A DNA stretch of 64,000 nt from contig JAHLWH010000192.1 of the NCBI GenBank assembly GCA_019058015.1, positions 302 through 64,301 on the forward strand, read 5' to 3'. Position 1 is the stretch's first letter. Every line of letters starts with the position of its first letter. This document shows, in pieces, positions 12,994-37,165 of the stretch. This stretch comes from Promethearchaeota archaeon (GTDB taxonomy: Archaea; Asgardarchaeota; Lokiarchaeia; Sigyniarchaeales; SOKP01). The translations under genes and the position numbers were made by a program. The notes under the pieces were generated by a model. The model was given only the letters and a program-made list of their open reading frames with translations. It was not told where the DNA came from and made no database searches.

Positions 12994-13031
12994 TCTGTTT
13001 ATATCCTTTAATATTTTATTAAATTCTTCTA

Positions 13032-17662: not shown

Positions 17663-19519
17663 GTGAATATTATTCTAAGGCAAGTTTATATTTATAAAGA
17701 GGGTGAATTGATATATTCCAGTCAGTTTGGCAAGGCATTATCGCAAGAGGTTTTTGATAGTTTGTTCAAACAACTACGTAAAGATGCTATGGCTGCACCA
17801 AGTGATAAGATTGAATATCATGATTACTATAAATATAGAATCACATACGCTACGGAAAAAAAAATAGATTTAATGTTCTTATTTGTAACGGGTATAACTG
17901 ATTCATCCAAAGATATTAAAACTGAATTACTTAGATGTAAAAGGGAATTTCTTAATCTTTTTGGGGATATAATCAAAACTGAATTTGATTCTAAAACTTT
18001 TGAAGTATTTGACCCAACAATTGATGTAATTCATAAAAATTTACGCCCCAAAATTTCACTCGTAGGATTTTCTGGTGTTGGAAAGACAACTATAACTAGA
18101 TTAATTAGGGCTGAAGAAATACCAATGGAACATATCCCTACTATAACTGGAGACATAGCAACTATTAAAATAGGAAAACTACACTTTCATTTATGGGATT
18201 TTGCAGGACAAGAACAGTTTAGCTATTTATGGAATAACTTTATTAAAGGAAGTGATGCAGTCCTTCTCATTACAGATTCAACTTTAGAAAATATAGAAAA
18301 AAGTAAATTTTTCCTCGATTTAATAAAAGATGAAGCACCCCATGCACATACTGCAATAATTGGAAACAAACAAGATCTTTCAGATGCTATTCCTGTAACA
18401 GAAATTGAGAACATTTTAGGTTTAAAAACTTATAATATGATTGCAAATAGAAAGGAAAATCGGGATAAAATGATTACAATAATTGCTGATATCCTTGAAA
18501 TGAGTGCAGAAGTAAGCCCCTTATTGAAACCATTGATTGAGAGAGATAAATTATTACAAGAAGCCGAATTATCACTTAATGAAGGCAATTTCCAAAATGC
18601 TTTAACCTTATTTGAAAAAATTTCGGATTTATGTCTTGATTTAGGTGATGATAGTTTAGGAAATGAATTTAATGAAAAAGCCCAGAAGATTAAAGAAATT
18701 TTAGTAAAGATGGAAACAACCCCAGTTGAAATTGTTAAACAAAAAGAAGAAGCTCAACCTACATCGGTTGAATCAACATCACCTGAACCCAAAGTTGCTC
18801 CGAAACCGGCAATTCCTAAACCACCAGCAATAAAAAAAACAACTGTACCAGAACCTAAAGCTGCTCCGAAACCAACAATCCCTAAACCTCCAGCAAAAAA
18901 AAAGCCAACTGTACCAGAACCTAAAGCTACTTCCAAACCAACTACACCTAAATCACAATCCACACAGCCAAAATTAACAATTAATCTAGAAGATTTTAAA
19001 ATTAAACCTCGTCCAACAAATATCTTATCCGCAAAACCCACTGGACCTAAACAATCATTAACTATTAGCCCCTTTAGTGCTATAAAACAAGAAGAACCTC
19101 AACCAAAACCATATACTACTAAACCCAAATCACCATATCAACAACCCTTACCTGATTCTAAAAAACCATCTCCGCCAATGCAAATAGCACAACCACCCAC
19201 CCCACCGAAAGCTCCACCTCAAACCTCTGTTCCAAAGCCTCTAACTCAGCCAACCCCAGCCCCAACCGAACCCCCAACAACAACCGTAAGAGACCAAGCA
19301 GGCACACAAAAAAATGAACTTGAAAAAACCTTAATGGATTTAAAGATTAAATTTGCAAATATTGCTAAAATGGAACTCGACCTTGATATGAAAGAACTTT
19401 CGGGAGAAATAACCTCAGAAGAGTTTAATAAGAAATCACAAAAAATGAAAGCCATAAAAGAGAACATATCAAAACAAATTGACGATATTCAGAATCTGTT
19501 AAATAGTTTTAGCGCATAA
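17663..19519 (+). CDS. Multidomain small GTPase: longin-like N-domain + Arf/SR-beta-like G domain + helical region + Pro/Lys-rich repeats + coiled coil
   Basis: G1 'GFSGVGKTT', G3 'WDFAGQEQF', G4 'GNKQDL' (NKQD is typical of Arf-type GTPases). The N-terminal ~125 aa ('ILRQVYIYKEGELIYSSQFG...YKYRITYATEKKIDLMFLFVTG') looks longin/SRX-like. The C-terminus carries PEPKAAPKP repeats and a heptad-like tail. Confidence 0.8.
   Translation: MNIILRQVYIYKEGELIYSSQFGKALSQEVFDSLFKQLRKDAMAAPSDKIEYHDYYKYRITYATEKKIDLMFLFVTGITDSSKDIKTELLRCKREFLNLFGDIIKTEFDSKTFEVFDPTIDVIHKNLRPKISLVGFSGVGKTTITRLIRAEEIPMEHIPTITGDIATIKIGKLHFHLWDFAGQEQFSYLWNNFIKGSDAVLLITDSTLENIEKSKFFLDLIKDEAPHAHTAIIGNKQDLSDAIPVTEIENILGLKTYNMIANRKENRDKMITIIADILEMSAEVSPLLKPLIERDKLLQEAELSLNEGNFQNALTLFEKISDLCLDLGDDSLGNEFNEKAQKIKEILVKMETTPVEIVKQKEEAQPTSVESTSPEPKVAPKPAIPKPPAIKKTTVPEPKAAPKPTIPKPPAKKKPTVPEPKATSKPTTPKSQSTQPKLTINLEDFKIKPRPTNILSAKPTGPKQSLTISPFSAIKQEEPQPKPYTTKPKSPYQQPLPDSKKPSPPMQIAQPPTPPKAPPQTSVPKPLTQPTPAPTEPPTTTVRDQAGTQKNELEKTLMDLKIKFANIAKMELDLDMKELSGEITSEEFNKKSQKMKAIKENISKQIDDIQNLLNSFSA
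18782..18952 (+). repeat. 66-nt (22-aa) tandem repeat, ~2.6 copies, inside the GTPase gene
   Basis: Units at 18782-18847, 18848-18913 and 18914-~18952 encode 'PEPK(V/A)APKP(A/T)IPKPPA(I/K)KK(T/P)TV'. Confidence 0.85.
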
Positions 19520-21877: not shown

Positions 21878-22408
21878 TTAGTGCCCTGAACGAGATTTAA
21901 TAATTCGCCGGGTCAATTCACCAAAAGCCTCCTCAACATGCACTCCAGTCTTAGCAGATGTCTCAATGTAAATTGAATTCTCGGCCTCAGCAAATCTTTT
22001 CGCTTCCTCCCTGTCAATAACTTCACCAACATCCTCAATTAAATCAATTTTATTACCTGCAAGAACAAATGGTATGTGTTCTCCAGCAAATTGCCGAATC
22101 TCCGCTAACCATTTTCGAATATCAGCATAAGTCTGTGCCCTTGAGAGATCGAAAACTAGAAGAACACCCGCTGCACCCTTATAAAACGTGCTTCTAATGA
22201 ACTCAAATCTTTGTTGCCCCCCAATATCCCATATACTCAAAGTCGCAATCTCGTCTCCCTCATAATTAACATCCTTTGTCAAAATATCAACACCAACAGT
22301 TAGTTTATAGTTTGTAGCAAATCGATTCTTGATAAAACGCTGAACTAAAGAGGTCTTTCCCACTGCGGCAGCACCACATAAAAGAACCTTAAGCTTGTAT
22401 GAAGACAT
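21878..22408 (-). CDS. Rab/Ras-like small GTPase (stand-alone G domain)
   Basis: G1 'GAAAVGKTS', G2 'TVGVD', G3 'WDIGGQQRF', G4 'GNKIDL', G5 'ETSAKTG'. 176 aa. The C-terminus ends '...KSRSGH' with no Cys prenylation motif. Confidence 0.85.
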   Translation of the reverse strand: MSSYKLKVLLCGAAAVGKTSLVQRFIKNRFATNYKLTVGVDILTKDVNYEGDEIATLSIWDIGGQQRFEFIRSTFYKGAAGVLLVFDLSRAQTYADIRKWLAEIRQFAGEHIPFVLAGNKIDLIEDVGEVIDREEAKRFAEAENSIYIETSAKTGVHVEEAFGELTRRIIKSRSGH

Positions 22409-23666: not shown

Positions 23667-23946
23667 CTAATTGAAAAAATCATTTTTATTATTATAAATT
23701 TACCTTTTTGAATAAGAATTTAATGAACTGCTAATTTCCTTTCCGACCAATGGTTATATTATATATTATTACATTGTATATGTTAGAAAATACAAGTGGG
23801 GCTCTACGGAGTTGAATGGTGTTAAAAATGTTTTTAAAAATTCATGGATTTAATTATAGATTTAGGAATTAAATCAAAGATAAGTAAAGAAGATTTACTT
23901 AAAGTTAATGAGAATTTTAAAAAAAAAAATTAGTCTTTTTTTCTGA

Positions 23947-24903
23947 TTAAAAGTTAATTTGCCATTGAAAATGATGTTTTAATCCTTCAGAAATTTTTAT
24001 TTTTGGGGAATATCCTAAGATTTTTTTTGCTTTATCGACGTTAGAGTATGTGATATCGACATCACCCAGTTGTTTTTCAATAAATTGAATTTTCTTCTGT
24101 TTATTTGCGATGGAATACATTTGATTGACTAATTCATTTACGGTTATCGGACTCGAGCAGCCGAGATTAAACACCTCTCCAACTGCCTCTGGTTTTTCTC
24201 CTGCGGCGATTACTCCCTCGATTATATCTGATATGTATGTGAAATCTCTAAGTTGTTCTCCATCTCCAAATATGGTTATCCCATGGTTATTAAGGATGAA
24301 ATCAAAAAATTTTCGAATTGCCATATCGGGGCGTTGGCGGGCGCCATACACAGTAAAAAAGCGTAGTGAGGTGATTGGTAGTCCATATAGTCTGTGGTAA
24401 AACTCGGCGTATTTTTCGCAGCATAGTTTTGACACGGCGTATGGTGAGATTGGGTTTTTGGGGTGGTTTTCATCTACGGGGGTATATTCCGGGTTGCCAT
24501 AGACGGAGGATGAAGAGGCGTTTACAATTTGTTTTATACTTTTATTTAAACAGAATTCAAATAATTTAACGGTTGATTTGATATTGTTGTCCATTACTTC
24601 TATTGGATGGATAATTGAATAGCGCACGCCTGCTTGTGCCGCCAGATGGAATATTATATCGATGTCATGGTCAATTTCTTGTAGAGTAGAATCATCTCTG
24701 AGGTCTTTCTTAATTAAAATAAAGTCTTCCCCGTTCTTATATTTTTGAGTTAAATCGAGCAAATTTTTTTCTTTCCCTGTGTAATATTCATTGAAGTTAT
24801 CGATTAGTATTAGAAAATTTCCGTTTCCGTTTAGCTTTTCCGCCAGATGGGAACCAATAAAGCCAGAGGCTCCAGTAATTAAGATTGTTTGATTTTTTAT
24901 CAT
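23947..24903 (-). CDS. NAD-dependent epimerase (UDP-glucuronate 4-epimerase-like SDR)
   Basis: 'ILITGASGFIGSHL', 'SPYAVSKLCCE', 'RFFTVYGARQRPDMAIRKF'. Confidence 0.85.
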   Translation of the reverse strand: MIKNQTILITGASGFIGSHLAEKLNGNGNFLILIDNFNEYYTGKEKNLLDLTQKYKNGEDFILIKKDLRDDSTLQEIDHDIDIIFHLAAQAGVRYSIIHPIEVMDNNIKSTVKLFEFCLNKSIKQIVNASSSSVYGNPEYTPVDENHPKNPISPYAVSKLCCEKYAEFYHRLYGLPITSLRFFTVYGARQRPDMAIRKFFDFILNNHGITIFGDGEQLRDFTYISDIIEGVIAAGEKPEAVGEVFNLGCSSPITVNELVNQMYSIANKQKKIQFIEKQLGDVDITYSNVDKAKKILGYSPKIKISEGLKHHFQWQINF

Positions 24904-25074: not shown

Positions 25075-28000
25075 ATGTTTGAGAAACCATCACCCCAGCA
25101 ATTAGCCGAGGAGGCAGTTCGGCACTTAGATTTAGCCGAGAAATATGAGTCTCAGCAGAATTGGGCGAAAGCTATTGTAGAATATAAGAGGGCTGTTGAG
25201 TTATTAAAACAAAGTGGGTTATTATCAGTTCATGTTGATGATATAAATGAGCGGATTATGCGTTTAACTCAAGTAGCTCAACAGGAGAAGGCATTACAGC
25301 GAAAGAAAGCCGAAGCTGAGTTTTCTGGTATAAGGGATGAAGCATTTCACTTTTTGGATAAGGCAAAGTCTTTAGAAGTCAATGGTCGTTATCAAGAAGC
25401 CATATCTCGTTATTCCTCAGCTATAAAGTTATTGGAACAGGCTAAATGGGATGAGAGTTTATTAGGACAAATCAAGTTAAAACTTGAAAAATTAATGGAG
25501 ATCTTCAAACAGCAACAAATTATGGCCCATCAAAGAGCATTACGGGCTGAACAGACACCCACCAAGGTTGAAAAGTCTTTTGGAGCTCCGGAAACTACAA
25601 TTATTCCTGCAGGACTTGATAAACGAAGTAAATTACGAATGGAATTTGAGACCCAAAAACGAAAGGAAGAGGATATACAAAATCGTGCTTTTGAATCAAT
25701 TGATATGGGTAAAAAGTTTTTGGAGGAAAAGAATTTTGATGTAGCAAAATCAAAATATCTCGAAGCTTTAGATCTATTGAGATCTATTAGATGGACTGAC
25801 GAGAATTTGTCTTATTTATATAGCGATATTGATTCGGTTGAAAGGCAGAGGGTAGCATTTGAAAAAGCAGAAAGTCAGAAAGTTGAGCAAGCTGCTAGAG
25901 CTACACCCCAACCCGTTACTTCGGAAATAGCTCCTCAGAAAGAAATAGTTCCAGAAATTATGGATGTACAATCAAAAGCAATAATGAAATATGAAGCGAA
26001 GAAAAGACGTGAGGAGGAGGTTCAAAAGAAAGCATTTGAATTGATGGATGAGGGTGAGCGTTTAATAAAGGTCAAGGAATTTGATGAAGCCATGGAAAAG
26101 TATGGTATGGCTGGGCGGCTCTTAGAATCTATTGGGTGGGCTGACCAATTAGTTCATATTAATAAAATCATTGATAAGATATATAAAGATAGAGTAAATT
26201 ATAAAAAGTTGCAAGCACAGCAAATTAAAGCAAAAGAAGCAGCGGTTACTGCACCAGTCCCTGAAATCTCAGTAAAAGCAAAAGCGAATATTGAATTTAA
26301 AAAGCAGAAAATAGTAGAGTTTGAAGAACGAAATAAGCATGAAGAGCATATTCAAGAAGAAGCTTTTAAGATGATTGATATTGCAAAACGATTTGAGCGA
26401 GAGAAGCAATATGATGGGGCAATCGAGAATTTTAATAGAGCAATTGATTTATTACAATCAATAGGGTGGACTGATTATGTTAAGCCAATATACAAGTTCA
26501 TCTCTGATATTAGAAGGAGACAAGAAAATGAACAGAAAGTTCTCGAGGAGAAAAAATCTCGAGAGAAAGAGTATTTAAAATTCCAAGAGATTATAAAAAA
26601 GCATGAAAAGATTCAGGTAGACCAGGAAGTAGAAGGAATTTCCCTAAAACAGAAAGAGCTTGAAAAGACACGGGAAATAGATCACGCAAAAGAGAAAAAA
26701 GCTTTTAATGTAATAAATGAAGCCGATGAATTGGTAAGAAAAGGCAATTATGAAAAGGCAATTAAAAATTATAAAAAGGCACGTGATATTTTTAGAGAGA
26801 TAGGTTGGGCTGATCAAATTGCGACAATTGAAACTACATTAAACACGGTTCAATATAAATATCGTGAATTTTTGAAAAATGAGGAGACAGCCAAGGAATT
26901 AAAAGTTAAGCGTGCTAAGGAAGATGAAGAATTTCGAAAAACAATTGCCGAACAGATTAGAAAAGAGAGGGAAAAGTTAGAGAAGAAAAAGATCGAAATA
27001 AGAGAATATGAAACAGAGATTGAATATCGGAAGAAAAGAAAGGTTGAAGCTTTTAAAATTTTAGATGAGGCAGAAGAATACACATTACGCGGGGATTTTG
27101 ATATTGCCATAGAAAAATATTCCATGGCATTAATGATTTTTGCAGAAATTCAATGGACTGATGAATTATCACTCATTCAAGATGCTATTCGAGATCTTGA
27201 AAACAGAAAGAAAGAAATGAGACTTCTAAAACTAAAAGAAAGAGAAGATGCTTTAAAAAGAGAAAAGGAAACAAAAGAGTTTCAGGATAAAATTTCTGAA
27301 CAATTAAGAGAGGAACGTATGAAGTTAAGAGAAAAAGAGATTACAGTTAGAGAATATGAAAAAGAAGTGAAATATCGGGAAAAACAAAAGGAGAAAGCAT
27401 TTAAGATCTTAGATGAAGCTCAAAAATTGACAATCAGTGGAGATTTTGATGATGCTATAGAAAAATATGAAGTAGCTTCGATTATTTTTGCAGAAATTCA
27501 ATGGGATGATGAGTTAGCACTTATTCAGAATGCGATTCGAGAACTTGAGAATAAAAAAATTGAAAGAGAATTATGGGAACAGAAGACTCGAGAGGTATTA
27601 TTGAAACGTGAGCAAGAAACCCAAGAATTTCAGGATATGATTGCTGAAGAATTAAGGATGGAGCGTGAAAAGTTAAGAGAGGGTCAAATTGGACTAAGAG
27701 AACACGAAGCTGAAGTAAAATATCGTGAAAATCGAAAAAATGAGGCTTTTGATATTTTAGATGCAGCAGAGATGTTAATAATGAGGGGGGATTTAGATGC
27801 TACGATTGAAAAATATCATGAGGCATCGATTATTTTTGCTGAAATTCGGTGGACAGAAGAGTTGGCACTTATTCAAGGTGCAATACGCAAACTTGAGCAA
27901 CAAAAGAAAGAGAAAGAACTGTGGGAACAAATAGTAAGAGAGGAAGCTATCAAAAGGGAACAAGAAGCAAGAGAATTTCAGCATGAAATTGCTTTAATCA

Positions 28001-31000
28001 AGAGTCAGCAAGAAGAGAAAGTAAAATTTGCGCAATATATTCAGGAACAGAAAAAAATCTTATCAGAGCAGAAATTAAAGAAACAAGAAGAAGCATTGAA
28101 AATGCTTGAGAGTTCAGATGAGCATATAAGGGAAGGAAATTTAGATGAGGCTATTAGAATTCACAAATCGGCAATAGAAATTTTTAATCAAATTGGTTGG
28201 AAAGGTCCTTATCTTAGGGTAATTAAAGATACACTAGAGAATTTAAATAGACGTAAAGTTGAAATCTCACAAAAGTTGCAACGAAGGAAGGAATTAGCAG
28301 TTAAACATGAAGCTGAAGAAAGAGAATTTCAAGCGAGAATTACTCATAATATTGAGTTAGAAAAGAAAAAAATGCTTGTTAAAAAAATCACGACTCAGAC
28401 TAAAGAACGATTACTTGCTTATCGAGAAAAAAAGCGTATTGAAGCATTTGATGTAATGAATAAGGCGGAGATTTTAACAAAACGTGGAAATTTTGATGAA
28501 TCTTTAGACCATTATCGTCAAGCTGATATTATTTTAAGTGAAATTCAATTTCCCTCACAGGCAGTTAAAGAAATGATACAGAAAATTAAATTGAAACAAA
28601 AGGAACAAAAGGAGTTATTACGGAAAGAAAGAAAGCTTCAAATTCATAGGCAATTAGAGGAGGAGACATTTCAAAAAGAAATTACTCGTCGGTTAGCACT
28701 TGAGAGAGAGAAGATGATGGTGAAGAAGATAGCAATCGAAACACGCGAGAAGATAGAAGTATATCGTGAGCAAAAACGAGAGGAAGCATTTAAGATATTG
28801 GATGAGGCGGAAGATTTAACTAAAACCGGGAATTTTGAGTTGGCAATTAATGCATATCGAAATGCCGTGCTTCTTTTAAGTAAAATACAATATCCTATTG
28901 ATTCGATTCATGAAATGATTAGAAAGGTCCGGTTAAAAAAGGTTGAACAAGAGGAACTTAAACGAAGAGAAATTAAACTGGCAGCCCAAAGGGAGAGAGA
29001 ATCAAGAGAATTTCGGGATAAAATCGCTTGGGAATTAAGAAGAGAGAGTGAGAGATTAAGAAGAAGGACAATTGCACTTATAGAATATGAAGCTGAAGTA
29101 GAATATCGTGAAGATAGAAAAAAGGAAGCTTTTGATGTGTTAGATTCAGCAAAGTTATTAACACTTAGAGGAGATTTTGATGCATCTATTGAGAAATATC
29201 GGAAAACTTCTATAATATTAGCGGAAATTCAATGGACAGAAGAATTAACACTAATTCAAAATACAATTCGTCAACTGGAAAATAGGAAGAAAGAACAAGA
29301 ACTTTGGGAACAACAATCTCGAGAAGAAGCAATTAAACGAGAACTTGAAGAGAGAGAATTTCAAGAAAAAATTACTGAGGCATTAAGAAAGGAGGGTGAA
29401 AAATTAAGAGAAAAAGAGATTGCACTTAGGGAATATGAACAAGAAAAAGAATATCGAGAAAAAAGGAGGGATGAGGCATTAAAGATTTTGGATAAAGCAG
29501 AAAAATCGACTATTGCTGGAGATTTTGATACAGCTATAGAAAAATATCATGAAGCATCAATCATTTTCGCTGAAATACAATGGACAGAGGAATTAGCACT
29601 TATTCAGAACGCAGTTCGCGATCTTGAGTATAAAAAGAAAGAACGGGTGTTTTGGCAACAAAAAGCTCGAGAAGATGCAATTTGGAGGGAATTAGAAGCA
29701 AAAAAATTTCAAACAGAGATTACTGAGGCATTAAGAAAGGAACGTGAAAGATTAAAGGATAAAGAGATTGCAATCAGAGAGTATGAAGAAGAAGTAAAAT
29801 ATCGGGAGATAAGAAAAGAGGAAGCATTTCATATTTTAGATTCAGCACAAATTTTAACAATGAGGGGAAATTTCGATGGGGCTATTGAGAAATATCATGA
29901 AGCCTCAATAATTTTAGCAGAAATTCAATGGACAGAAGAATTAGAACATATTCAAAATGCAATTAGTGAGCTTAATAAGAAAGAGAAAGAAAGAGAGCTT
30001 TGGCAACTAAAATTAAGAGAGGCAGTACTTAAACAAGAGCATGAAATAAGAGAATTTCAGCATAAAATTTCCATAATGAAAAAGAATGAAGAAGATAAAG
30101 TAAAAATGGCGCAGTTTTTACAAAAACAGCAAAAGGTTTTATCAGAACAACAACTAAAAAAGCAAAATGACGCGTTGAAGATGCTTGAAGTTGCAGATAC
30201 TCATATAAAAAGAGGTCAATTAGATGATGCTATTGAAATTTATAAATCAGCAGTAGATATTTTTAATAAGATAGGTTGGAAGGGTCCTTATCTTAAAGTT
30301 TTCCAAGATACATTTGATAATTTAACTAAACGCAAACTTGAAATCGAACAATTAAAACAACATCAAATACAATTAGCAGCTAAACGTGAAGCAGAGGAAA
30401 GAGAATTTCAAGCTAAAATTGCTCGAAGTATAGAGTCTAAAAAGAAGAAGATGCTAGCAAAAGAAATTGCTATTCAAACTAGGGAAGAAATAATTGCTCA
30501 TCGAGATAATCGACGTAATAAAGCATTTGATATTATGGATAAAGCAGAGGAATTAACTAAAGCTGGAAAATTTGATGAATCATTAACGCTTTATCGCCAA
30601 GCTGATATAATATTAAGTGAAATTCAATTTCCATCATATGCGGTAAGAGAAATGATACAGAAAATCAAAATGAAGCAAAAGGAACAAGAGGAATTACGTC
30701 AAAAAGAGAGCGAACTTCAAATAAAAAGACAATTAGAAGAAGAGGCATTTCAAAGAGAAATTGCTCGTCAGGTAGCACTTGAGAGAGAGAAGATGATAGT
30801 GAAGGAAATTGAGATTGAAACTCAAGAAAATATAAGGGCATACCGAGAAAAACGCCGAGATGAAGTATTTAAAGTATTAGATGAAGCGGAATTCTTAACA
30901 AAAAGAGGAAACTTAGATTTAGCTATTGAAACCTATCGCAAAGCAGCTCTTTATCTAACTGAAATTCAATATCCAGTTGATGCAATTTATGAAATGATTA

Positions 31001-33858
31001 AAAAACTTCGCATTAAAAAAATAGAAGAAGATCAAATGAGACAGAGAAAAATTGAAGCACCTACTCAGAGAGAGCTTGAATATAGACGTTTTCAGGAAGA
31101 GATTACTCTAGAATTGAAAAGAGAAGAGGAAAGACTCAAAGAAAAAGAAATCATACTTAGAGAATATGAAAAAGAAAAGGAATATCGTGAAACAAGAAAG
31201 AATGAAACATTCAATATTTTAGATACTGCAAAACAATTTACAATTAGGGGAAATTTTGATGCCGCTATAGAAAAATATCACGAGGCTTCAATAATTTTGG
31301 CTGAAATTCAATGGACTGAGGAATTAACAAATATTCAAAATGCTATTCGTGAACTTGAAAGGAGAAAGAAGGAAAGAGAACTTTTGGAGCAAAAAGCAAG
31401 AGAAGAAGCGCTTAGGAGGGAACAAGAAACGAGAGAATTTCAATACAACATTGTGCAAATGAAGGCAATGAACGCAGAAAAAATAAAAATGGCACAATAT
31501 ATTCAAGAACAACAAAAGGTTTTATCAGAAGCAAATTATTTAAGACAAAATGAAACGCTAAAAATGCTTGAAGCTGCAGATACATATATAAAAAGGGATA
31601 AATTAGATGATGCTATTGAAATATACATATCTGCTATGGGAATACTTAATGAAATAGGATGGAAAGGACCATATTTAAAAGTAATTCAAGACACACTAGA
31701 TAATTTAAATAAGCGCAAACTCGAAATTGAACAAATCAAACAACAGCAAATTGAGTTAGCAGTTAAACGTGATGCAGAGGAGAGAGACTTTCAGGCTAAA
31801 ATCGCACGAAGTATAGAGAATGAAAGACAGAAAATGTTAGCAAAAAAAATTGTTATTCAGACTCAGGAAGAATTACTTGCTCATCGTGAAAATAGGCGTA
31901 AGGAAGGATTTGACATTATAGATAAAGCTAAAGAAATGACGAAAGAAGAAAATTTTGAGGAAGCATTAAGACTATACCGTCAAGCCGATATAATTTTAAG
32001 TGAAATTCAATTCCCATCAAACGTTGTAAAAGAAATGATTCAAAAAGTCAAATTGAAACAAAGGGAACAAGAAGAATTACGTCAAAGAGAAAGAGAGATT
32101 CAAATTCAGAAGCAATTAGAAGAAGAAGGATTTCAAAGGGAAATTGCTTATCACATAAAGCTTGAGAAAGAAAAAATGAGGTCAAAAAAGATTGCGCTTG
32201 AAGCACAAGAAATGATTAAAGATTATCGCGAACAAATAAGAGAAGAAGCATTTAGAGTACTAGAAGAGGCAGGACAATTAACCAACTCTGGAAAATATGA
32301 ATTAGCGATTAGTGCTTATAGAAATGCCACGTTAATTCTTAGCGAGATTCAATATCCTATCGATTCAATTAATGAGATGATTAAAAAAGTTCAGAATAAA
32401 AAATTAGAGCAAGAACAGCTTAAACATATAGAAATGGAGGCAGCGTTCCAAAGAGAGCAAGAAGAAAAGTACCTTGAAGAGGAAATTGGCCAAAAAGTTC
32501 AGTTAGAACAAGAAAGAATGATGAAGAAGTTAAAAGCTATTGTATCACGTGAAAAACTACAAGTACGTTTTGAACAACGAAGAGAAGAAGCATTCAAGGT
32601 ATTAGAAGAAGCAGAACAATTAATTAAGACTGGTAACTTTGATGAAGCAATTGAAACATACCGAAAAGCTTCATTAATTCTAAGTGAAATTCAATATCCC
32701 TTAGAGTCAATCAATGAGATGATCAGAAAAGTACAAATGAGAAAGTTCCAACAAGAACAGATTATTCAACAAGGAAGGGAAGCACAACTTCAGAGAGAAA
32801 GAGAAGAGGCCGATCTTAGAAGAATTATTGAAGAACGTCAGCGTCAAGAAGAGGAAATGAAAAGAGCAAGATATTTGGCTCTAAAGCAAAGAGAAGAATT
32901 AATTGCAAGAGTAGAAAGCCGTAGAGAAGTTGCATTTTCCCTATTGGAGAATGCTGATAAATTTTTAAAGCAATTTCCTCCTGATTTTGATAAATCAATT
33001 GAGTTATATTTAGAAGCTAGAAATATTCTTTTAGAAATAAATTGGGAGCCAGAAATTGCGAATTTAGACACTTTAATCAGAAATTTAAGAGAAGAAAAAC
33101 AAAAATTTATTATTCAACAAAAGCAGGAAGAGGAGGTCCGAATTCGTGCTGCTGAAGAATATGAGAAATTTAAGCAGGAAATCCTAAGAAAAAAGTTAGA
33201 AGTTAAAAGAGTTCAAGAAGAACAACGGATAAAGCTTGAAGCATTTAAATTTGAACAAGAACAACGAGAAAAACTTCAACAAGAGGGTTTTAATCTTCTT
33301 GATGATGCAAAAAAATCAGTTTTAATGCATCAGTTTAATTTTGCTTACAAACAATTTGATCAGGCTGTTGAAAAATTTAAAAGTATTGGCTGGTTTGAAC
33401 AGATAAAATATATTGAAAAGGAAATAGAAACTACTAAGAAATTAGAAGAAAATGCAATAAAAGCACAGGAAGAGGTTAAAAGAGCTCAAGAGGCACTCTT
33501 AAAACAAAAAGGATTAGAAGAACAGCGGCGAATAGAAGAAGAAACAATGAAAATACAATCAGTTAAGGAAATTACAGCAATTTCAGATGACATTATCAAA
33601 TCATTAAGACAACAACGATTAGAACAAGAAAGTATTCAAGTTGTTACTAAAGAACAAATAAAATCAGATGCTGCAAGTTTTGCAAAAGAGTTAACAAAAA
33701 TGATTAAAATTAAACAAAATTTAGTAGCAGAAATTGAAAAAGCTGAAGAGGACGAGAAACAAAAAGCAATAGAGAAAGAAAAACAAAAAACCAAGGAAGA
33801 ACTAAAAGATCTACATAAAAGGATAAAAGATGCTGCCAAAAAATCAAAGAAAAAATAA
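25075..33858 (+). CDS. Giant (2,927 aa) cytosolic repeat protein: ~25 MIT-like three-helix modules separated by Glu/Arg/Lys-rich helices
   Basis: Uninterrupted 8,784-nt ORF with no TM or signal segment. The recurring unit is 'EAFxxLDxAExLxxxGxFDxAIExYxxAxxIxxEIxW..EL..IQxAIxxLE', followed by 'REFQxxI...REYExExEYRExRK'. Confidence 0.9.
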   Translation: MFEKPSPQQLAEEAVRHLDLAEKYESQQNWAKAIVEYKRAVELLKQSGLLSVHVDDINERIMRLTQVAQQEKALQRKKAEAEFSGIRDEAFHFLDKAKSLEVNGRYQEAISRYSSAIKLLEQAKWDESLLGQIKLKLEKLMEIFKQQQIMAHQRALRAEQTPTKVEKSFGAPETTIIPAGLDKRSKLRMEFETQKRKEEDIQNRAFESIDMGKKFLEEKNFDVAKSKYLEALDLLRSIRWTDENLSYLYSDIDSVERQRVAFEKAESQKVEQAARATPQPVTSEIAPQKEIVPEIMDVQSKAIMKYEAKKRREEEVQKKAFELMDEGERLIKVKEFDEAMEKYGMAGRLLESIGWADQLVHINKIIDKIYKDRVNYKKLQAQQIKAKEAAVTAPVPEISVKAKANIEFKKQKIVEFEERNKHEEHIQEEAFKMIDIAKRFEREKQYDGAIENFNRAIDLLQSIGWTDYVKPIYKFISDIRRRQENEQKVLEEKKSREKEYLKFQEIIKKHEKIQVDQEVEGISLKQKELEKTREIDHAKEKKAFNVINEADELVRKGNYEKAIKNYKKARDIFREIGWADQIATIETTLNTVQYKYREFLKNEETAKELKVKRAKEDEEFRKTIAEQIRKEREKLEKKKIEIREYETEIEYRKKRKVEAFKILDEAEEYTLRGDFDIAIEKYSMALMIFAEIQWTDELSLIQDAIRDLENRKKEMRLLKLKEREDALKREKETKEFQDKISEQLREERMKLREKEITVREYEKEVKYREKQKEKAFKILDEAQKLTISGDFDDAIEKYEVASIIFAEIQWDDELALIQNAIRELENKKIERELWEQKTREVLLKREQETQEFQDMIAEELRMEREKLREGQIGLREHEAEVKYRENRKNEAFDILDAAEMLIMRGDLDATIEKYHEASIIFAEIRWTEELALIQGAIRKLEQQKKEKELWEQIVREEAIKREQEAREFQHEIALIKSQQEEKVKFAQYIQEQKKILSEQKLKKQEEALKMLESSDEHIREGNLDEAIRIHKSAIEIFNQIGWKGPYLRVIKDTLENLNRRKVEISQKLQRRKELAVKHEAEEREFQARITHNIELEKKKMLVKKITTQTKERLLAYREKKRIEAFDVMNKAEILTKRGNFDESLDHYRQADIILSEIQFPSQAVKEMIQKIKLKQKEQKELLRKERKLQIHRQLEEETFQKEITRRLALEREKMMVKKIAIETREKIEVYREQKREEAFKILDEAEDLTKTGNFELAINAYRNAVLLLSKIQYPIDSIHEMIRKVRLKKVEQEELKRREIKLAAQRERESREFRDKIAWELRRESERLRRRTIALIEYEAEVEYREDRKKEAFDVLDSAKLLTLRGDFDASIEKYRKTSIILAEIQWTEELTLIQNTIRQLENRKKEQELWEQQSREEAIKRELEEREFQEKITEALRKEGEKLREKEIALREYEQEKEYREKRRDEALKILDKAEKSTIAGDFDTAIEKYHEASIIFAEIQWTEELALIQNAVRDLEYKKKERVFWQQKAREDAIWRELEAKKFQTEITEALRKERERLKDKEIAIREYEEEVKYREIRKEEAFHILDSAQILTMRGNFDGAIEKYHEASIILAEIQWTEELEHIQNAISELNKKEKERELWQLKLREAVLKQEHEIREFQHKISIMKKNEEDKVKMAQFLQKQQKVLSEQQLKKQNDALKMLEVADTHIKRGQLDDAIEIYKSAVDIFNKIGWKGPYLKVFQDTFDNLTKRKLEIEQLKQHQIQLAAKREAEEREFQAKIARSIESKKKKMLAKEIAIQTREEIIAHRDNRRNKAFDIMDKAEELTKAGKFDESLTLYRQADIILSEIQFPSYAVREMIQKIKMKQKEQEELRQKESELQIKRQLEEEAFQREIARQVALEREKMIVKEIEIETQENIRAYREKRRDEVFKVLDEAEFLTKRGNLDLAIETYRKAALYLTEIQYPVDAIYEMIKKLRIKKIEEDQMRQRKIEAPTQRELEYRRFQEEITLELKREEERLKEKEIILREYEKEKEYRETRKNETFNILDTAKQFTIRGNFDAAIEKYHEASIILAEIQWTEELTNIQNAIRELERRKKERELLEQKAREEALRREQETREFQYNIVQMKAMNAEKIKMAQYIQEQQKVLSEANYLRQNETLKMLEAADTYIKRDKLDDAIEIYISAMGILNEIGWKGPYLKVIQDTLDNLNKRKLEIEQIKQQQIELAVKRDAEERDFQAKIARSIENERQKMLAKKIVIQTQEELLAHRENRRKEGFDIIDKAKEMTKEENFEEALRLYRQADIILSEIQFPSNVVKEMIQKVKLKQREQEELRQREREIQIQKQLEEEGFQREIAYHIKLEKEKMRSKKIALEAQEMIKDYREQIREEAFRVLEEAGQLTNSGKYELAISAYRNATLILSEIQYPIDSINEMIKKVQNKKLEQEQLKHIEMEAAFQREQEEKYLEEEIGQKVQLEQERMMKKLKAIVSREKLQVRFEQRREEAFKVLEEAEQLIKTGNFDEAIETYRKASLILSEIQYPLESINEMIRKVQMRKFQQEQIIQQGREAQLQREREEADLRRIIEERQRQEEEMKRARYLALKQREELIARVESRREVAFSLLENADKFLKQFPPDFDKSIELYLEARNILLEINWEPEIANLDTLIRNLREEKQKFIIQQKQEEEVRIRAAEEYEKFKQEILRKKLEVKRVQEEQRIKLEAFKFEQEQREKLQQEGFNLLDDAKKSVLMHQFNFAYKQFDQAVEKFKSIGWFEQIKYIEKEIETTKKLEENAIKAQEEVKRAQEALLKQKGLEEQRRIEEETMKIQSVKEITAISDDIIKSLRQQRLEQESIQVVTKEQIKSDAASFAKELTKMIKIKQNLVAEIEKAEEDEKQKAIEKEKQKTKEELKDLHKRIKDAAKKSKKK
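25438..33420 (+). repeat. In-frame array of 24 modules at 330-351-nt spacing (plus one shorter N-terminal module)
   Basis: The anchor is the codon three residues before the conserved W/F/Y. Anchors start at 25438, 25783, 26128, 26458, 26797, 27145, 27493, 27841, 28189, 28540, 28882, 29224, 29572, 29920, 30268, 30619, 30961, 31303, 31651, 32002, 32344, 32686, 33034 and 33382. I checked all of them to be in frame with 25075. Confidence 0.9.
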
Positions 33859-33883: not shown

Positions 33884-35464
33884 TTAAATATTTTTTATTT
33901 CAATAAAGTATTTTTTAAGATTTCTGTTTATATAAATTATTCCAATTATCATTAGAGCCGAAATTGCTACTACAATTAATAATCTATAATCAAAAATTAT
34001 TGATAATATAAAACTTCCTGAACCACTGCCAAATATCAATTTTACAACTAAGAAATAATCATGATTGTTTGGTACAAAAATTCCGCATCTTCTATAGAAA
34101 TCGAATTGGTTAATGGTTGAAGCAGTTATTATAGGTTCTCCATAATAATTAGGATTGGTATCAAAAATATAAAGCTCTGCTTCTGCATCATTTAATAGAG
34201 CTAGATCAAAAAAATAATGCATTCCACCTTGTAAGTTAATTTTTCTACACCACACTTTTTTTTGATTAGAATTATCTCCCAAGGAAAAACAAACACTATT
34301 ATTGTTTTCAAAACTTACATATAGGTCCAATGCATCTATAGCAGCATAACCTTGAATCATTCCCCATCCTTGATAATTATCTTTAATAGCTCTTGGATAG
34401 ATGGTTTTTATGGAAGTTAAAGAAATAATACTTTTTACTTCAAGGGGTTTTAAGGAAGGGTCTTTTTCAAGCATTAATGATGCTAAGCCGCTAACCATAG
34501 GCGCTGCTACAGATGTCCCTGAAGCATATATATAAGTATCATTTCTCCCAAAATCATCCTTTGTAGCTCCATATATATCGACAGCAGGTGCGCATAAATC
34601 CGGTTTGATAATATTTTCACTAGAAGGACCTTTACTGCTTTTTGAATACATTATTCCATTGCTTTTCACACCACCGACACCAATAACCGATTTTGCATCA
34701 GCTGGAGAAGTAATTGTGTGAAAACCTGTTCCCTCTTCTCCATCATTCCCTACAGCAGCTACTACAACTATTCCTGCTTCCATCAAGGATTCTGTGATTG
34801 AATTTAAGAGTTTTATTGAATTACTATCTGTGGAAGCTTCTAACCCAAAACTCATACTCACTATTTTAATATTATATTTAATTTTATTCTCAAGAACCCA
34901 ATCAATCCCATTTTCAACGGCTTGAATAGAAGATATTAATTCATCATCCTCTTCAGAGAATTCAAAAACTTTTATGGCCACCAAATTTGCCTCAGGGGCT
35001 ACTCCAAGATATTGGGGTGAATTTCCTGCTGCAATTGATGAAACGTATGTTCCATGCGAATTAATATCCTCCGGACTTTTTTCTTTTTGATCAAAAGCAT
35101 CGTAAAACGCAACAATTTTTTCATTCCAAGAGATGGTTCCATTATTTGTGAAAACATCATGATATGGATAAATTCCCGTGTCAAATATTGCAATAGTTGA
35201 ATTTTTTCCGCTTAAATCATCATCGATAAAAGATTTATTTAAGCTAATTAAATCACTCACTTGAAATTGAGAAACAGCAGCTGTCTTAATGGGTGCTTGA
35301 TTGGTTTGAAGATTCAAATTATAATTTGGATTTAATGAAAAAGTTATTTGATTTAAATGATTCATTAAAAAAAGATAGGGAGAATTAAGCCAGATTACTA
35401 TTAACCAGAAGAAAATCCATTTTTTATTTAAAAATTGTTTGCACCCATTTGAATAGTAAAACAT
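33884..35464 (-). CDS. Subtilisin-like serine protease (peptidase S8), N-terminal signal/anchor and C-terminal TM
   Basis: Catalytic triad contexts are 'IAIFDTGI' (Asp), 'NSHGTYVSSIAAG' (His) and 'SGTSVAAPMVSGLASL' (Ser). There is a hydrophobic N-terminus and a C-terminal 'LLIVVAISALMIIGIIYI' segment. Confidence 0.85.
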   Translation of the reverse strand: MFYYSNGCKQFLNKKWIFFWLIVIWLNSPYLFLMNHLNQITFSLNPNYNLNLQTNQAPIKTAAVSQFQVSDLISLNKSFIDDDLSGKNSTIAIFDTGIYPYHDVFTNNGTISWNEKIVAFYDAFDQKEKSPEDINSHGTYVSSIAAGNSPQYLGVAPEANLVAIKVFEFSEEDDELISSIQAVENGIDWVLENKIKYNIKIVSMSFGLEASTDSNSIKLLNSITESLMEAGIVVVAAVGNDGEEGTGFHTITSPADAKSVIGVGGVKSNGIMYSKSSKGPSSENIIKPDLCAPAVDIYGATKDDFGRNDTYIYASGTSVAAPMVSGLASLMLEKDPSLKPLEVKSIISLTSIKTIYPRAIKDNYQGWGMIQGYAAIDALDLYVSFENNNSVCFSLGDNSNQKKVWCRKINLQGGMHYFFDLALLNDAEAELYIFDTNPNYYGEPIITASTINQFDFYRRCGIFVPNNHDYFLVVKLIFGSGSGSFILSIIFDYRLLIVVAISALMIIGIIYINRNLKKYFIEIKNI

Positions 35465-35572: not shown

Positions 35573-37165
35573 ATGGAACCGATGGAAAAAAGGGAATTTT
35601 CCTTAGAAGAAAGAAAGATGTATGCTCGTCAGCAGCTCGTTGAAGGCTGGGATCAAGAGACTATAAAAAATAGTTGTGCTTTGATTATTGGAGTTGGTGC
35701 TCTCGGGTGCGAGATCGCTAAGGATTTAGCTTTAATGGGTATAGGGAAATTAATTTTAGTTGATATGGATAAAATTGAAACCTCAAATCTCTCAAGACAA
35801 ATGTTATTTCATGCAGGAGATGAGGGTAGAACAAAAGTTGAGGTTGCCGCAGAGCGTTTAAAATTGATGGCTCCGTTTCTCGAAGTTGAGTATTATTTTG
35901 ATAAATTACAAAATCTTCCAATGAAGGTGTATGAAGAATCGGATGTTATTGTTGCTGCATTAGATAATGTTAGGGCAAGAATGGATTTAAACAAGATTGC
36001 TTTAAGATTAAAAAAACCAATGGTTGAGGGTGGTACTGTAGGATTTGAGGGGCACGTTCAAAACATTATCCCAAAAGGCTCAAATATAAAATTCCATGAG
36101 AGAGAAAAAGTTATAGATGAAATAGTGCAAGAGAAATTATGGAATTTATCTGAAGAAGAATATACTGAATATTTTGCTGCTCAAGAAAGTATAGAAAAGC
36201 TTGAGGAGCGAATATCTCTATTAAAATCTCAATTTATCGAGCAGGTTGTTGAAAAAGTACGCCAGCAAGTTGGAAATGAGTTTGATGAAAAATATTCTGA
36301 AGATTATCTTGATCAAACAGCTTGTTATAGGTGTCTAGTTCCTATTCCACCACCTGATGATAAATTAATTGCAGCATGCACATTAAAAGGTATTCCGAGA
36401 AATAGAAATCATTGTGTTTTAAAAGCAGAGTTAAATTTTGAAAAGAAATATGGACGGATGCCAGATTTGGATAATGATGAGGATATATACAAATTAATGG
36501 AATTGGCTCAAGAGGAATTAGAATTATTACAAGAACGAGTTTTTAAAGAAAACGTCTCTGATGAGCAATTATCAACATTATCAGAAGAAGAAATGCAAAA
36601 GTGGAAGATTAATATTCGAGATACTTTCGGTCCAAATTATGTATTTGAAGATATGGAAAATATTTTAGGAAATAAAATCGCTGCGGTTCAGACTGTTAGT
36701 TCAATTATCGCAAGTATTCAATCCCAGGAGGCACTAAAATTAATATTTAGAGCAAAGGGAAGGGATATTGGTCCCCCCATGGATCCTCCTTATGTAAATT
36801 ATAGCGGAATTTATGGAATATTCGAGCAGGTTCCGGTGTTTAAACGAGAAGATTGTATTGATTGTGGGGATATTGAAGGAGAGGAAAATGTTAGTATTGT
36901 AGTTCCATTTAATTCAAAGGTTAAAGACATTTTTAGTGCATTGGATGTTTCTGGTTATAAATTAGATTCCGAAAAGTGGATGATCACGAATTCAATGAAT
37001 AAAGAGATTCTTTGGCATCCCTCAATTCCCACTTTTAAAGATCCTGAAGCTCTATTACAAAGCCTAAAAATAACGAGTAATGACGTTGTAACATTTACAC
37101 CTTTAAGTAACGATATTGGTGAATTAGAAATAAAAAAATATAATGTAATCGTTTCCTATTTGTAA
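35573..37165 (+). CDS. Ubiquitin-activating-enzyme (E1)-like protein, ThiF/MoeB/UBA family
   Basis: Adenylation domain: 'IIGVGALGCEIAKDLALMGIGKLILVDMDKIETSNLSRQMLF' and 'LDNVRARMDLN'. Zn-type Cys pairs: 'CYRC' and 'CIDC'. Eukaryote-type active-site context: 'AACTLKGIPRNRNHC' (Cys codon 36377-36379). There is also a ~90-aa C-terminal domain. Confidence 0.85.
   Translation: MEPMEKREFSLEERKMYARQQLVEGWDQETIKNSCALIIGVGALGCEIAKDLALMGIGKLILVDMDKIETSNLSRQMLFHAGDEGRTKVEVAAERLKLMAPFLEVEYYFDKLQNLPMKVYEESDVIVAALDNVRARMDLNKIALRLKKPMVEGGTVGFEGHVQNIIPKGSNIKFHEREKVIDEIVQEKLWNLSEEEYTEYFAAQESIEKLEERISLLKSQFIEQVVEKVRQQVGNEFDEKYSEDYLDQTACYRCLVPIPPPDDKLIAACTLKGIPRNRNHCVLKAELNFEKKYGRMPDLDNDEDIYKLMELAQEELELLQERVFKENVSDEQLSTLSEEEMQKWKINIRDTFGPNYVFEDMENILGNKIAAVQTVSSIIASIQSQEALKLIFRAKGRDIGPPMDPPYVNYSGIYGIFEQVPVFKREDCIDCGDIEGEENVSIVVPFNSKVKDIFSALDVSGYKLDSEKWMITNSMNKEILWHPSIPTFKDPEALLQSLKITSNDVVTFTPLSNDIGELEIKKYNVIVSYL

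Follow-up and report, generated by a model that had tools for sequence, protein, structure and literature searches.

MIT domains act as adaptors through which enzymes are brought to ESCRT-III in both eukaryotes and archaea. To our knowledge, the proteins that carry them have one to three copies, and tandem arrangements are known in calpain-7, ULK3 and Vta1. The domain (PF04212) is an up-down-up three-helix bundle of ~75–80 aa shared by VPS4/CdvC, katanin p60, spastin, MITD1, NRBF2, USP8 and calpain-7. Here we describe a gene, in a 64,000-nt stretch of DNA (the window) from a Promethearchaeota archaeon (GenBank assembly GCA_019058015.1, contig JAHLWH010000192.1), whose giant product is best read as a new architecture made from this known domain type. 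A first-pass annotation, made from the DNA letters alone, knew of no described equivalent and placed the DNA in an archaeon akin to eukaryotes in its membrane-remodelling genes. The host is indeed an Asgard archaeon, NCBIfam has no family naming the protein, a literature search found no description of a giant MIT-like family, and surveys of ESCRT proteins do not mention it (PMC10936438, PMC8970359, PMC9192718).

The gene is a single ATG-to-stop ORF of 2,927 aa (ORF list and translation; coordinates are in the table). With stops making up ~8% of random codons at ~30% GC, the probability that a frame stays open over 2,927 codons by chance is ~1e-105. As first annotated, the frame is uninterrupted and its product is devoid of transmembrane or signal segments, no 19-aa window in the 2,927-aa protein exceeding 0.94 on the Kyte-Doolittle scale; cysteine is absent from the whole protein as well. 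Six independent assemblies (P0001–P0006, drawn from JGI, NCBI and Logan assemblies) all encode 2,927-aa versions at 89–93% identity, and comparison with two gap-free 2,927-aa versions, L001 (95.3% nucleotide identity) and L002 (92.5%), gave dN/dS values of 0.27 and 0.23, respectively. Orthologues, which keep the same N-terminus, are also found on the closed chromosomes CP070805 and CP070831. This giant protein of Loki-type Asgard archaea is real and conserved.

An HMM built from the protein's own modules finds 25 of them in frame, with successive spacings of 76, 115, 115, 110, 113, 116 (four times), 117, 114, 114, 116 (three times), 117, 114, 114, 116, 117, 114 (three times) and 118 aa. This agrees to within one residue with the first-pass count of 24 repeats at 110–117 aa after a shorter N-terminal copy, and the motifs quoted there (AFxxLDxA...GxFDxAIxxY...EIQW in the module, REFQ and EYRE in the spacer) were all found, the string given for module 6 (KGNYEKAIKNYKKARDIFREI) being present in the translation. 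That annotation had not picked up a higher-order repeat, in which the modules from the seventh onwards fall into four subtypes arranged as AAABCD, AAABCD and ABCDD. These blocks are 59–62% identical in protein and 70–74% in DNA, and a 348-nt period is in evidence for block 2 (TRF). By sequence, no modules come closer to MIT than the first two, which score 21.6 and 29.9 bits, respectively, against Pfam MIT, and this tandem pair, whose 76-aa spacing is kept in essentially all orthologues, recalls the tandem MIT domains mentioned above. The 118/119-aa spacing ahead of the final module is kept in all orthologues.

Features of the giant gene and its conserved neighbours (window coordinates)
Feature	Coordinates	Strand	Evidence
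Giant repeat protein gene, 25 modules and C-terminal tail	25075..33858	+	ORF list, orthologues of equal length
Modules 1–2, tandem MIT-like pair, 76 aa apart, no rod between	25084..25569	+	
Modules 3–6, divergent bundles	25663..27018	+	Spacer composition, module identity matrix
Block 1, modules 7–12, A A A B C D, periods 116/116/116/117/114/114 aa	27019..29097	+	AF2 model residues 649–1075
Block 2, modules 13–18, A A A B C D; 61% aa and 72% nt identity to block 1	29098..31176	+	
Block 3, modules 19–23, A B C D D	31177..32901	+	
Terminal modules 24–25, divergent	32902..33486	+	
Non-repeat C-terminal tail, ~123 aa, conserved	33487..33855	+	Orthologue C-termini alignment
Extreme C-terminal amphipathic helix and polybasic end (ELKDLHKRIKDAAKKSKKK)	33799..33855	+	Conserved across orthologues
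ThiF-type E1-like enzyme	35573..37165	+	Pfam; in 69/79 loci
Ras-family small GTPase, conserved upstream neighbour	21878..22408	-	Pfam; in 58/79 loci
Arf/Roc-like GTPase protein	17663..19519	+	Pfam, sequence; in 46/79 loci

The search of Asgard genomes for orthologues of varying copy number that had been suggested at the outset was productive. At least 79 genomes of Asgard archaea (Promethearchaeota) carry orthologues, which form about 50 protein clusters and are all annotated as 'hypothetical', and the family appears to be restricted to Asgard archaea as far as named sequences show. Their module numbers fall into block-wise classes of 14, 17–18, 20 or 25, the 14-module form being common, and the pitch (...116, 116, 116, 117, 114, 114, 114, 119) is kept nearly residue for residue among orthologues that are only 32–37% identical. 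Together with the dN/dS values and with the invariant spacer residues and hydrophobic seam described below, this conserved spacing supports a functionally constrained pitch. Paralogous families built to the same bundle-plus-long-helix plan are encoded alongside it in these genomes, and the cultured Promethearchaeum syntrophicum MK-D1 has one such paralogue, DSAG12_01611. The MK-D1 protein P0138 was considered as a positional orthologue and rejected; it is a paralogue, since its neighbourhood is unrelated. Likewise rejected was the idea that the periods of the paralogues (116, 127, 130 and 138 aa) differ by whole helical turns in the spacer: the 127- and 130-aa modules owe their extra residues to a loop, DKIPYECPYP, that is inserted between helices 1 and 2, and the long helix is nearly constant between these modules and the 116-aa type (77 versus 80 aa).

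What does a module look like? A single module is predicted by AF2 to be a three-helix bundle (helices 2–28, 31–47 and 52–82; pLDDT 89.3, pTM 0.71). More than half of its top 40 Foldseek matches in the PDB are MIT domains, with TM scores of 0.45–0.70 and E-values all above 0.2 (0.2–1), as small helical bundles usually give. Among these MIT domains are VPS4B (4u7y), Sulfolobus Vps4 (2w2u/2v6y), Vps4 (4niq), NRBF2, MITD1, USP8 and spartin, as well as katanin p60 (TM 0.70, rmsd 1.5 Å), archaeal Vps4 being a fold neighbour at 24–26% identity. In profile searches, the whole protein scores highest against Pfam MIT (147.5 bits, E 1e-43, eight stretches), which is also the commonest family per module, being found in 36 of 72 modules at E <= 0.01 against 17 for TPR_2. 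On single modules it peaks at 29.9 bits, none reaching the 30-bit cut-off, and its alignments span helices 1–2 only (profile positions about 2–45 of 66), leaving helix 3 unmatched. Full-length, single-domain sequence matches in the PDB are the MIT domains of VPS4A, calpain-7, CdvC and NRBF2. Searches of the PDB by phmmer with single modules returned only insignificant matches, to TPR fragments and full-length MIT domains alike (E 0.06–0.9). The initial assignment of the unit to MIT is partly supported: its three-helix MIT-type fold and its top Pfam family speak for it, while the sub-threshold scores of single modules, the restriction of the profile matches to helices 1–2 and the Foldseek E-values weaken it, as does the quoted motif, G-x-Y-x-x-A-I-x-x-Y-x-K-A, which fits CdvC no better than it fits consensus TPR designs. 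On balance, the models support an MIT-type three-helix bundle that stands free, rather than a stacked TPR solenoid.

How these bundles may be joined is suggested by an AF2 monomer model of residues 649–1075 (mean pLDDT 82), with helices at 2–24, 27–43, 50–140, 143–159, 163–256, 259–275, 279–371, 375–391 and 397–426. In this prediction of consecutive modules, which had been proposed at the outset as a test of fold and spacer, MIT-type bundles sit on long helices and there is no solenoid stacking; compared with the PDB, the four-bundle model has no global match (TM <= 0.16) and only local MIT ones. Helix 3, the spacer and helix 1 of the following bundle are modelled as one helix of ~92 residues (91–94) free of proline and glycine, and in 183 orthologous modules these two residues make up 0.75% of the long-helix columns, while the turn between helices 1 and 2 is 70% glycine and the helix-3 cap 44% proline. 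Each ~116-aa module would consist of a short middle helix of ~17 aa and one long helix of ~92 aa, which would start as helix 3 of bundle n, run through a ~40-residue free spacer and end as helix 1 of bundle n+1, and the chain would therefore be a series of 25 MIT-type bundles held at fixed pitch on unbroken helices. With a rise of 0.15 nm per residue and the back-tracking middle helix subtracted, the chain would advance ~11 nm per module and could reach ~0.25 micrometre with 25 modules or ~0.15 micrometre with 14, figures that are uncertain, as is the orientation of the bundles, because the pTM is only 0.32. Spacers 2–4, which contain proline or glycine, are probably flexible.

The spacers had been described as ER/K helices. 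They are helical and charged, but they are not clean ER/K helices because they carry a conserved hydrophobic seam: E, K and R make up 35–62% and bulky hydrophobics 20–30% of each spacer. The seam (columns 88, 92, 96, 103, 110 and 117) runs along one face of the helix from column 88 to helix 1 of the next bundle. F88, conserved in 95% of the 183 orthologous modules, is one of five invariant spacer residues, with Q89, E99, E116 and Y119. AF2 was run on the monomer, and the seam could instead belong to a coiled-coil oligomer, which would alter the geometry.

We tentatively favour the possibility, which falls short of an even expectation, that the protein is a cytoplasmic, rod-like, fixed-pitch and multivalent peptide-binding scaffold whose candidate ligands are MIM-type tails of ESCRT-III. 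MIT domains take up MIM-type motifs in the helix 2/3 or helix 1/3 groove; each bundle would likewise bind a short helical or proline-rich motif in its groove, and a partner in many copies, or a polymer through many of its subunits, would be kept at regular distances along the protein. The best candidates for such ligands would be the MIM-type tails of the Asgard ESCRT-III proteins, since Asgard Vps2/24/46 and Vps20/32/60 bear MIM1- and MIM2-like tails (PMC7240154). The downstream ubiquitin-type E1 gene of 69 of the 79 loci is compatible with a ubiquitin/ESCRT-type pathway, though weak as evidence. Against an ESCRT link, a domain search of the ~45 ORFs of the window found no Snf7, Vps4 or ESCRT-I/II domains. 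Within the giant protein itself, strict and relaxed MIM1 and MIM2-like patterns gave no matches. The hydrophobic pattern occurs once, in the C-terminal DLHKRIKDAAK, outside the canonical MIM1 regular expression, and the extreme C-terminal helix could be either MIM1-like in this pattern or a membrane-binding tail. The conserved basic amphipathic tail might tether the rod to a membrane or engage the bundles of another copy, and block-wise changes in module number (14, 18, 20 or 25) would alter reach or valency.

The foremost alternative, which we consider less likely but credible, is a spectrin-like structural or cytoskeletal rod in which the bundles are purely architectural joints with no MIM-type ligand. 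Such a rod could self-associate through the spacer seams into a dimeric or higher coiled coil and act as a stiff or elastic strut, a tether or a membrane skeleton. Helix continuity between three-helix bundles is what defines spectrin-repeat rods and is precisely what the AF2 multi-module model predicts, helix C being continuous with the next helix A. The spacers, with their 20–30% of bulky hydrophobics, their one-faced seam of 4-4-7-7-7 spacing and their invariant residues, point the same way because an isolated helix would not need such residues, and both the polybasic C-terminal tail and the paralogous families built on the same bundle-plus-long-helix plan in the same genomes would be in keeping with it. 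However, neither Pfam nor Foldseek gave a Spectrin match (PF00435), and the three helices of ~30 aa that fill a spectrin repeat are not seen: the middle helix has only 17 aa, which leaves ~40 residues per module unpaired in the monomer model. Moreover, with one hydrophobic per heptad and charged residues at would-be 'd' positions, the seam is weak for a canonical coiled coil, while the many conserved polar positions on the surface of the bundle fit a binding site.

A more specific and rather improbable version of the scaffold is a ruler or template running along ESCRT-III or another Asgard polymer and gripping one MIM-type tail approximately every 11 nm. Were this true, module number (14, 18, 20 or 25) would set the length, the curvature or the cross-linking distance of membrane-remodelling assemblies, and a nebulin-like principle would be at work in the closest archaeal relatives of eukaryotes.

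We find it improbable that the protein is a generic TPR-type interaction scaffold, not specifically related to MIT or ESCRT, its modules being single hairpins with a capping helix. This reading draws on the top-scoring PDB sequence matches of the module profile, which are consensus TPR designs matched through a 22-aa stretch, G-x-Y-D-E-A-I-x-x-Y-x-K-A-L-E, and on additional matches to Pfam TPR_11, TPR_2 and TPR_1. The 34-aa helix-turn-helix signature of TPR is found through this stretch, at 13–18 bits per repeat. The high scores, however, are sums of such fragments over the repeats of the target. There is one hairpin per 116 aa (110–118), adjacent hairpins occurring only in modules 1–2, AF2 predicts no stacking, and no run of three or more adjacent stacked 34-aa repeats was found by module spacing, AF2 or Foldseek. 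TPR structures align globally only in a nonsensical manner (rmsd >70 Å) and, in the profile comparison that had been proposed to decide the matter, MIT ranks above every TPR family, per protein as well as per module.

Equally doubtful is a role as adaptor of the Asgard ubiquitin-like system, with the rod serving the adjacent E1 and E2 by recruiting or spacing substrates or enzymes. Several of the MIT proteins found in eukaryotes, AMSH and USP8 among them, are deubiquitinases, and across the 79 loci no neighbour is more conserved than the E1-like gene, which mostly lies directly downstream on the same strand at a distance of 100–300 nt; an E2 gene is present in 50 of the loci. However, a subtilase gene on the opposite strand lies between the giant and E1-like genes in this window and at 23 other loci, and Pfam and NCBIfam reveal no ubiquitin-binding domain in the giant protein. 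Conserved around the giant gene are GTPases, E1/E2 and housekeeping genes. One of these neighbours, the Arf/Roc-like protein, combines its GTPase with one TPR/MIT-like hairpin, a proline-rich repeat region and a C-terminal coiled coil, the proline-rich region and the C-terminal helix being conserved. The entire 25-kb block is syntenic, in mixed orientations, and also includes unrelated genes (an aspartokinase, a RACo-like gene, a HAD hydrolase, an oxidoreductase and a deacetylase). Because it mixes such genes, synteny may reflect slow rearrangement rather than shared function and carries little weight as functional evidence.

Finally, that the gene is an assembly artefact (the collapse or expansion of a shorter gene) or a non-coding repeat array, for which only the general risk of repeats in metagenome assemblies speaks, is refuted to near certainty by its identical length in six independent assemblies, repeat blocks that are merely 70–74% identical in DNA, dN/dS values of 0.23–0.27 and orthologues in 79 genomes, including the closed chromosomes CP070805 and CP070831.

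If its bundles bind ESCRT-III tails or another polymer, as the favoured scaffold reading would have it, the protein would reveal a novel means of arranging membrane-remodelling or cytoskeletal assemblies in the lineage closest to eukaryotes; if they bind no such ligand, it remains a long helical rod of a new type, an analogue of spectrin, and would be a clean natural example of bundles spaced by a rigid helix. Set against known systems, it resembles each in part. With TPR repeats (PF00515, PF07719, PF13414) it has in common the helix 1-turn-helix 2 signature G-x-[YF]-[DE]-x-A-I-x-x-Y-x-x-A, but neither stacking nor superhelix. Modular rulers (nebulin on actin, CCDC39/40 in axonemes) also have many modules at strict pitch and block-wise length classes, a likeness without homology in which association with a filament is by analogy alone. 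Like the ER/K single helices of myosin VI/X and caldesmon, its spacer is a charged helix free of proline and glycine that stands alone in the monomer model, but with only 35–62% E, K and R, a conserved seam and invariant residues. The rods of spectrin, alpha-actinin, dystrophin and bacterial EzrA are likewise chains of three-helix bundles with a ~110-aa repeat, whereas here the bundles are short and set apart by ~40 residues of unpaired helix, since the middle helix is short (17 aa). From the MIT proteins, its best fold neighbours, it differs in having 14–25 copies of the bundle instead of one to three, in lacking any enzymatic or other domain and in the predicted sharing of helices 1 and 3 between neighbouring bundles through a continuous helix of ~92 residues.

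The giant protein is, on our tentative reading, a rod-like, fixed-pitch, multivalent scaffold, with MIT-type bundles that would each bind one short motif, supplied by a partner that is itself repetitive or polymeric. Delimited by an A-F-x-x-L-D anchor motif and alignment, its modules number 25, and a module HMM run on the protein finds exactly 25 copies, spaced by 76, 115, 115, 110, 113, 116 (four times), 117, 114, 114, 116 (three times), 117, 114, 114, 116, 117, 114 (three times) and 118 residues. The first-pass annotation was therefore correct, to within one residue, in describing a shorter N-terminal copy and then 24 recurrences at 110–117 aa. Modules 1 and 2 form a tandem pair with no intervening rod, Pro/Gly are present in the spacers (helical stretches between successive bundles) following modules 2–4, and a non-repeat tail of ~123 residues follows module 25. 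Absent from that annotation was a higher-order repeat: from module 7 on, four subtypes, A (EIQWTEEL), B (IGWKGPYL), C (EIQFPS) and D (IQYPID), succeed each other as AAABCD / AAABCD / ABCDD. Since identity between these blocks is down to 59–62% in protein and 70–74% in DNA, their duplications are old.

AlphaFold2 predicts with good confidence that each module is a three-helix bundle (module 8 with 72 aligned modules; helices 2–28, 31–47 and 52–82; pLDDT 89.3, pTM 0.71) and that successive bundles are linked by continuous helices. In a model of four bundles (residues 649–1075, 18 orthologous sequences, mean pLDDT 82), whose relative orientation is undefined because pTM is low (0.32), each module comprises a 17-residue middle helix and a single continuous helix of 91–94 residues, which runs from helix 3 of one bundle through a ~40-residue free stretch into helix 1 of the following bundle. 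This continuity is independently supported by 183 orthologous 116-aa modules, because Pro/Gly are scarce (0.75%) over the 89 alignment columns of the long helix; Gly reaches 70% at the turn between helices 1 and 2 and Pro 44% at the helix-3 cap. From the helix lengths, each module would advance the chain by ~11 nm and 25 modules by up to ~0.25 µm, a maximum that holds if the chain is straight.

The spacers had been described as ER/K helices, which holds in so far as a continuous charged helix is predicted (E+K+R 35–62% per spacer), but they are not plain ER/K since bulky hydrophobics make up 20–30% of each and form a seam on one face. Hydrophobic columns are fixed in the 183 modules at 69, 75, 79, 88 (Phe, 95%), 92, 96, 103, 110 and 117; those from column 88 on occupy a single helical face (160–240 degrees), on which the Phe that points into the core from the following helix 1 also lies, and F88, Q89, E99, E116 and Y119 do not vary in alignments of orthologues. 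Because hydrophobics are fixed on one face, something packs on it, the candidates being another copy of the protein, a ligand and the loop Trp of the bundle that follows. The conserved seam is the main support for a purely structural, self-associating rod of the spectrin-like or coiled-coil type. However, there is only one hydrophobic per heptad, with charged residues at the would-be second core position, and the seam is not a canonical coiled coil. We regard such a rod as the second most likely reading, after the binding scaffold.

We conclude that the fold of the modules is of the MIT type, with MIT as best family, while proof of membership in the strict, per-domain sense is lacking and any ligand binding is putative. 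Although Foldseek finds no PDB match for the module 8 model at E ≤ 1e-3, poor E-values are commonplace for bundles this small, and MIT domains dominate the ranking, with TPR domains only further down. The matches include VPS4B (4u7y), Sulfolobus Vps4/CdvC (2w2u, 2v6y; 20–24% identity), yeast Vps4 (4niq, 2v6x, 5fvl), katanin p60 (TM 0.70, rmsd 1.5 Å over 73 columns), NRBF2, MITD1, USP8 and spartin. MIT also scores best in Pfam over the whole protein (147.5 bits, E 1e-43, against 99.9 for TPR_11 and 75 for TPR_2), and half of the single modules match it at E ≤ 0.01 (36/72, against 17 for TPR_2 and 14 for TPR_1). Where a sequence match extends over the three helices together, its target is an MIT domain (VPS4A/B, calpain-7, chitin synthase, NRBF2, CdvC), each with a weak E-value. 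The MIT assignment of the first-pass annotation is thus borne out by fold and best family, but no single module reaches the 30-bit Pfam cut-off (the top one, module 2, scores 29.9), the alignments span profile helices 1–2 only, and the G-x-Y-x-x-A-I-x-x-Y-x-K-A stretch, the module-6 example that it had likened to CdvC included, is matched at least as well by consensus TPR designs as by CdvC. The scores of these TPR designs are sums of 13–18-bit fragments over the target's repeats. Homologues already carried precomputed Pfam labels of both kinds. A generic TPR scaffold nevertheless has a smaller weight: the four-bundle model has no global PDB counterpart in Foldseek (TM ≤ 0.16, rmsd >70 Å) and matches MIT domains locally only, which excludes a TPR solenoid.

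ESCRT-III tails would be the leading ligand candidate for a multivalent MIT-type scaffold, because Asgard ESCRT-III proteins have MIM1- and MIM2-like tails (PMC7240154). The C-terminal 123 residues of the giant protein are themselves conserved in all orthologues, and end in a conserved amphipathic helix and a lysine run, which read ELKDLHKRIKDAAKKSKKK in the window and ADEIKKMLKDISKKKK or VDNLKRMIKEAGKKKK in other orthologues. MIM1 motifs have hydrophobics at i, i+4 and i+7 and are located at the very C-terminus; the tail shares both features, and may be a MIM1-like motif. It fails the canonical MIM1 expression, with Met at the key Arg position in most orthologues, and a membrane-binding amphipathic, polybasic segment would be an equally good reading. 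We infer the dimensions of the scaffold, the type of its ligand, the role of its tail and the meaning of its copy-number classes.

The window is clearly Asgard in origin: its genes include those for Ras- and Arf/Roc-type GTPases, a ThiF-type E1, a UQ_con E2, an IFT52-GIFT protein and a tRNA that presumably has an intron. Genes for ESCRT components are absent from its 64 kb. The giant gene lies in a block syntenic across 79 loci, its neighbours encoding E1 (69/79), Ras (58), aspartokinase (54), a HAD hydrolase (52), E2 (50) and a GTPase/coiled-coil protein (46). Most genomes have the E1 gene downstream on the same strand, within 100–300 nt. Upstream, the epimerase pair is a local replacement within the otherwise syntenic block, other genomes having a gene for a 655-aa RACo-like ferredoxin/ATPase at this site (6594–8561 in L015, a relative's locus). 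Since unrelated housekeeping genes, in mixed orientations, are part of the block, synteny is only a weak hint of a link to E1/E2 and GTPases, and a role as ubiquitin-pathway adaptor has a smaller weight. The GTPase protein could be a candidate partner. Its architecture is unusual: an N-terminal domain, an Arf/Roc-like small GTPase and one TPR/MIT-like hairpin (EAELSLNEGNFQNALTLFEKI) are followed by a long Pro-rich repeat region (PEPKAAPKPTIPKPPAKKKPTV...) and, at the C-terminus, a coiled coil that is strongly conserved and has a weak CdvA-like Pfam match; the Pro-rich region and C-terminal helix are retained in 44 orthologues.

Features of the window, in order of position
Feature	Position	Strand	Remarks
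Glycosylation island	1-14000		GC 24%; MurJ-like flippase, GT1/GT4/GT2/GT87 glycosyltransferases; 733-aa ORF with no Pfam match
NAD-dependent sugar epimerase/dehydratase	7570-9951	-	793 aa; interrupted by intein (Pfam Intein_splicing, residues 223-648)
Transposase-like wHTH gene	14119-14622		follows the island
GTPase/coiled-coil protein	17663-19519	+	618 aa
Two epimerase/dehydratase genes	22692-24903	-	directly upstream of giant gene; only in closest relatives (L001, L002)
Giant gene	25075-33858	+	one ATG-to-stop ORF, 2,927 codons (ORF list, translation)
C-terminal helix and lysines	33799-33855	+	orthologue C-terminus alignment
Subtilase	33884-35464	-	between giant and E1 genes; 24/79 loci, window included
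tRNA	40663-40794	+	Rfam, 46 bits; presumably intron-containing, being 132 nt long; no tRNA found in window by ARAGORN
Second Ras-family GTPase	51660-52718	+	180-aa N-terminal extension; eukaryote-signature type
IFT52 GIFT-domain protein	59696-60994	-	eukaryote-signature type

A scan of one genome per species gave 106 confirmed loci, 79 of which were kept. All carry the label Promethearchaeota/Promethearchaeia (the Asgard phylum), among them MAGs labelled Loki-, Hermod- and Hod- and a single one labelled Odin-, and two are on closed chromosomes. Genes not running off a contig end have 14 modules (28 loci), 17–18 (29, some 18-module genes probably being counted as 17 owing to first-ATG ORF calling), 20 (3), 25 (2) or, in a few cases, other numbers, the longer forms exceeding the 14-module form by entire blocks, each of four to six modules. 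Pitch is conserved: core-module spacing (...116, 116, 116, 117, 114, 114, 114, 119) is near residue-exact in orthologues of only 32–37% identity, and 114, 116, 117 and 119 are the dominant periods across all orthologues. The family is restricted to Asgard archaea: of 1.84 billion representative proteins, searched exhaustively with a profile, only 420 match at E ≤ 1e-3 (74 at E ≤ 1e-30), and all matches that have a name are Asgard 'hypothetical protein'. Among the matches are paralogous families with the same architecture, in which the period is 127, 130 or 138 aa. One paralogue, P0079, shares a 912,750-bp contig with L001, and another, DSAG12_01611 (2,547 aa), is found in an unrelated neighbourhood in cultured Promethearchaeum syntrophicum MK-D1. 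The latter, P0138 (L080, 10001–17644), is one of the giant paralogues (with P0107, P0131 and P0169; 1,900–2,900 aa, 127- or 130-aa modules) that have a conserved DKIPYECPYP loop between helices 1 and 2 and one Cys per module, whereas the 2,927-aa window protein has no Cys.

The giant gene is real and under purifying selection. At ~30% GC, ~8% of random codons would be stops, and the chance of a 2,927-codon open frame is ~1e-105. Purines are strongly enriched on the coding strand (GC skew +0.2 to +0.38, AT skew +0.3), which fits a product with 17% Glu, 12.5% Lys and 8% Arg. This has no membrane or signal segment over its full length, since Kyte-Doolittle hydropathy peaks at only 0.94 (19-residue windows). 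A length of exactly 2,927 aa is shared by six protein clusters (89–93% identity) drawn from JGI, NCBI and Logan assemblies, and gap-free versions are present in two species-level genomes, L001 (95.3% nucleotide identity, dN/dS 0.27) and L002 (92.5%, 0.23). The mis-assembly considered in the first-pass annotation is ruled out by these versions, and as DNA identity between repeat blocks is only ~73%, an assembly error that collapses or expands them is no realistic concern; an artefact has essentially no weight.

We found no description of this family in the literature, ESCRT surveys included. MIT is already known as a domain type; what is new is the architecture, 14–25 MIT-type bundles sharing helices via rigid spacers at a near residue-exact pitch, and a lineage-specific family with several paralogues built on it, which are of clear interest for the ESCRT, Asgard cytoskeleton and protein design fields.
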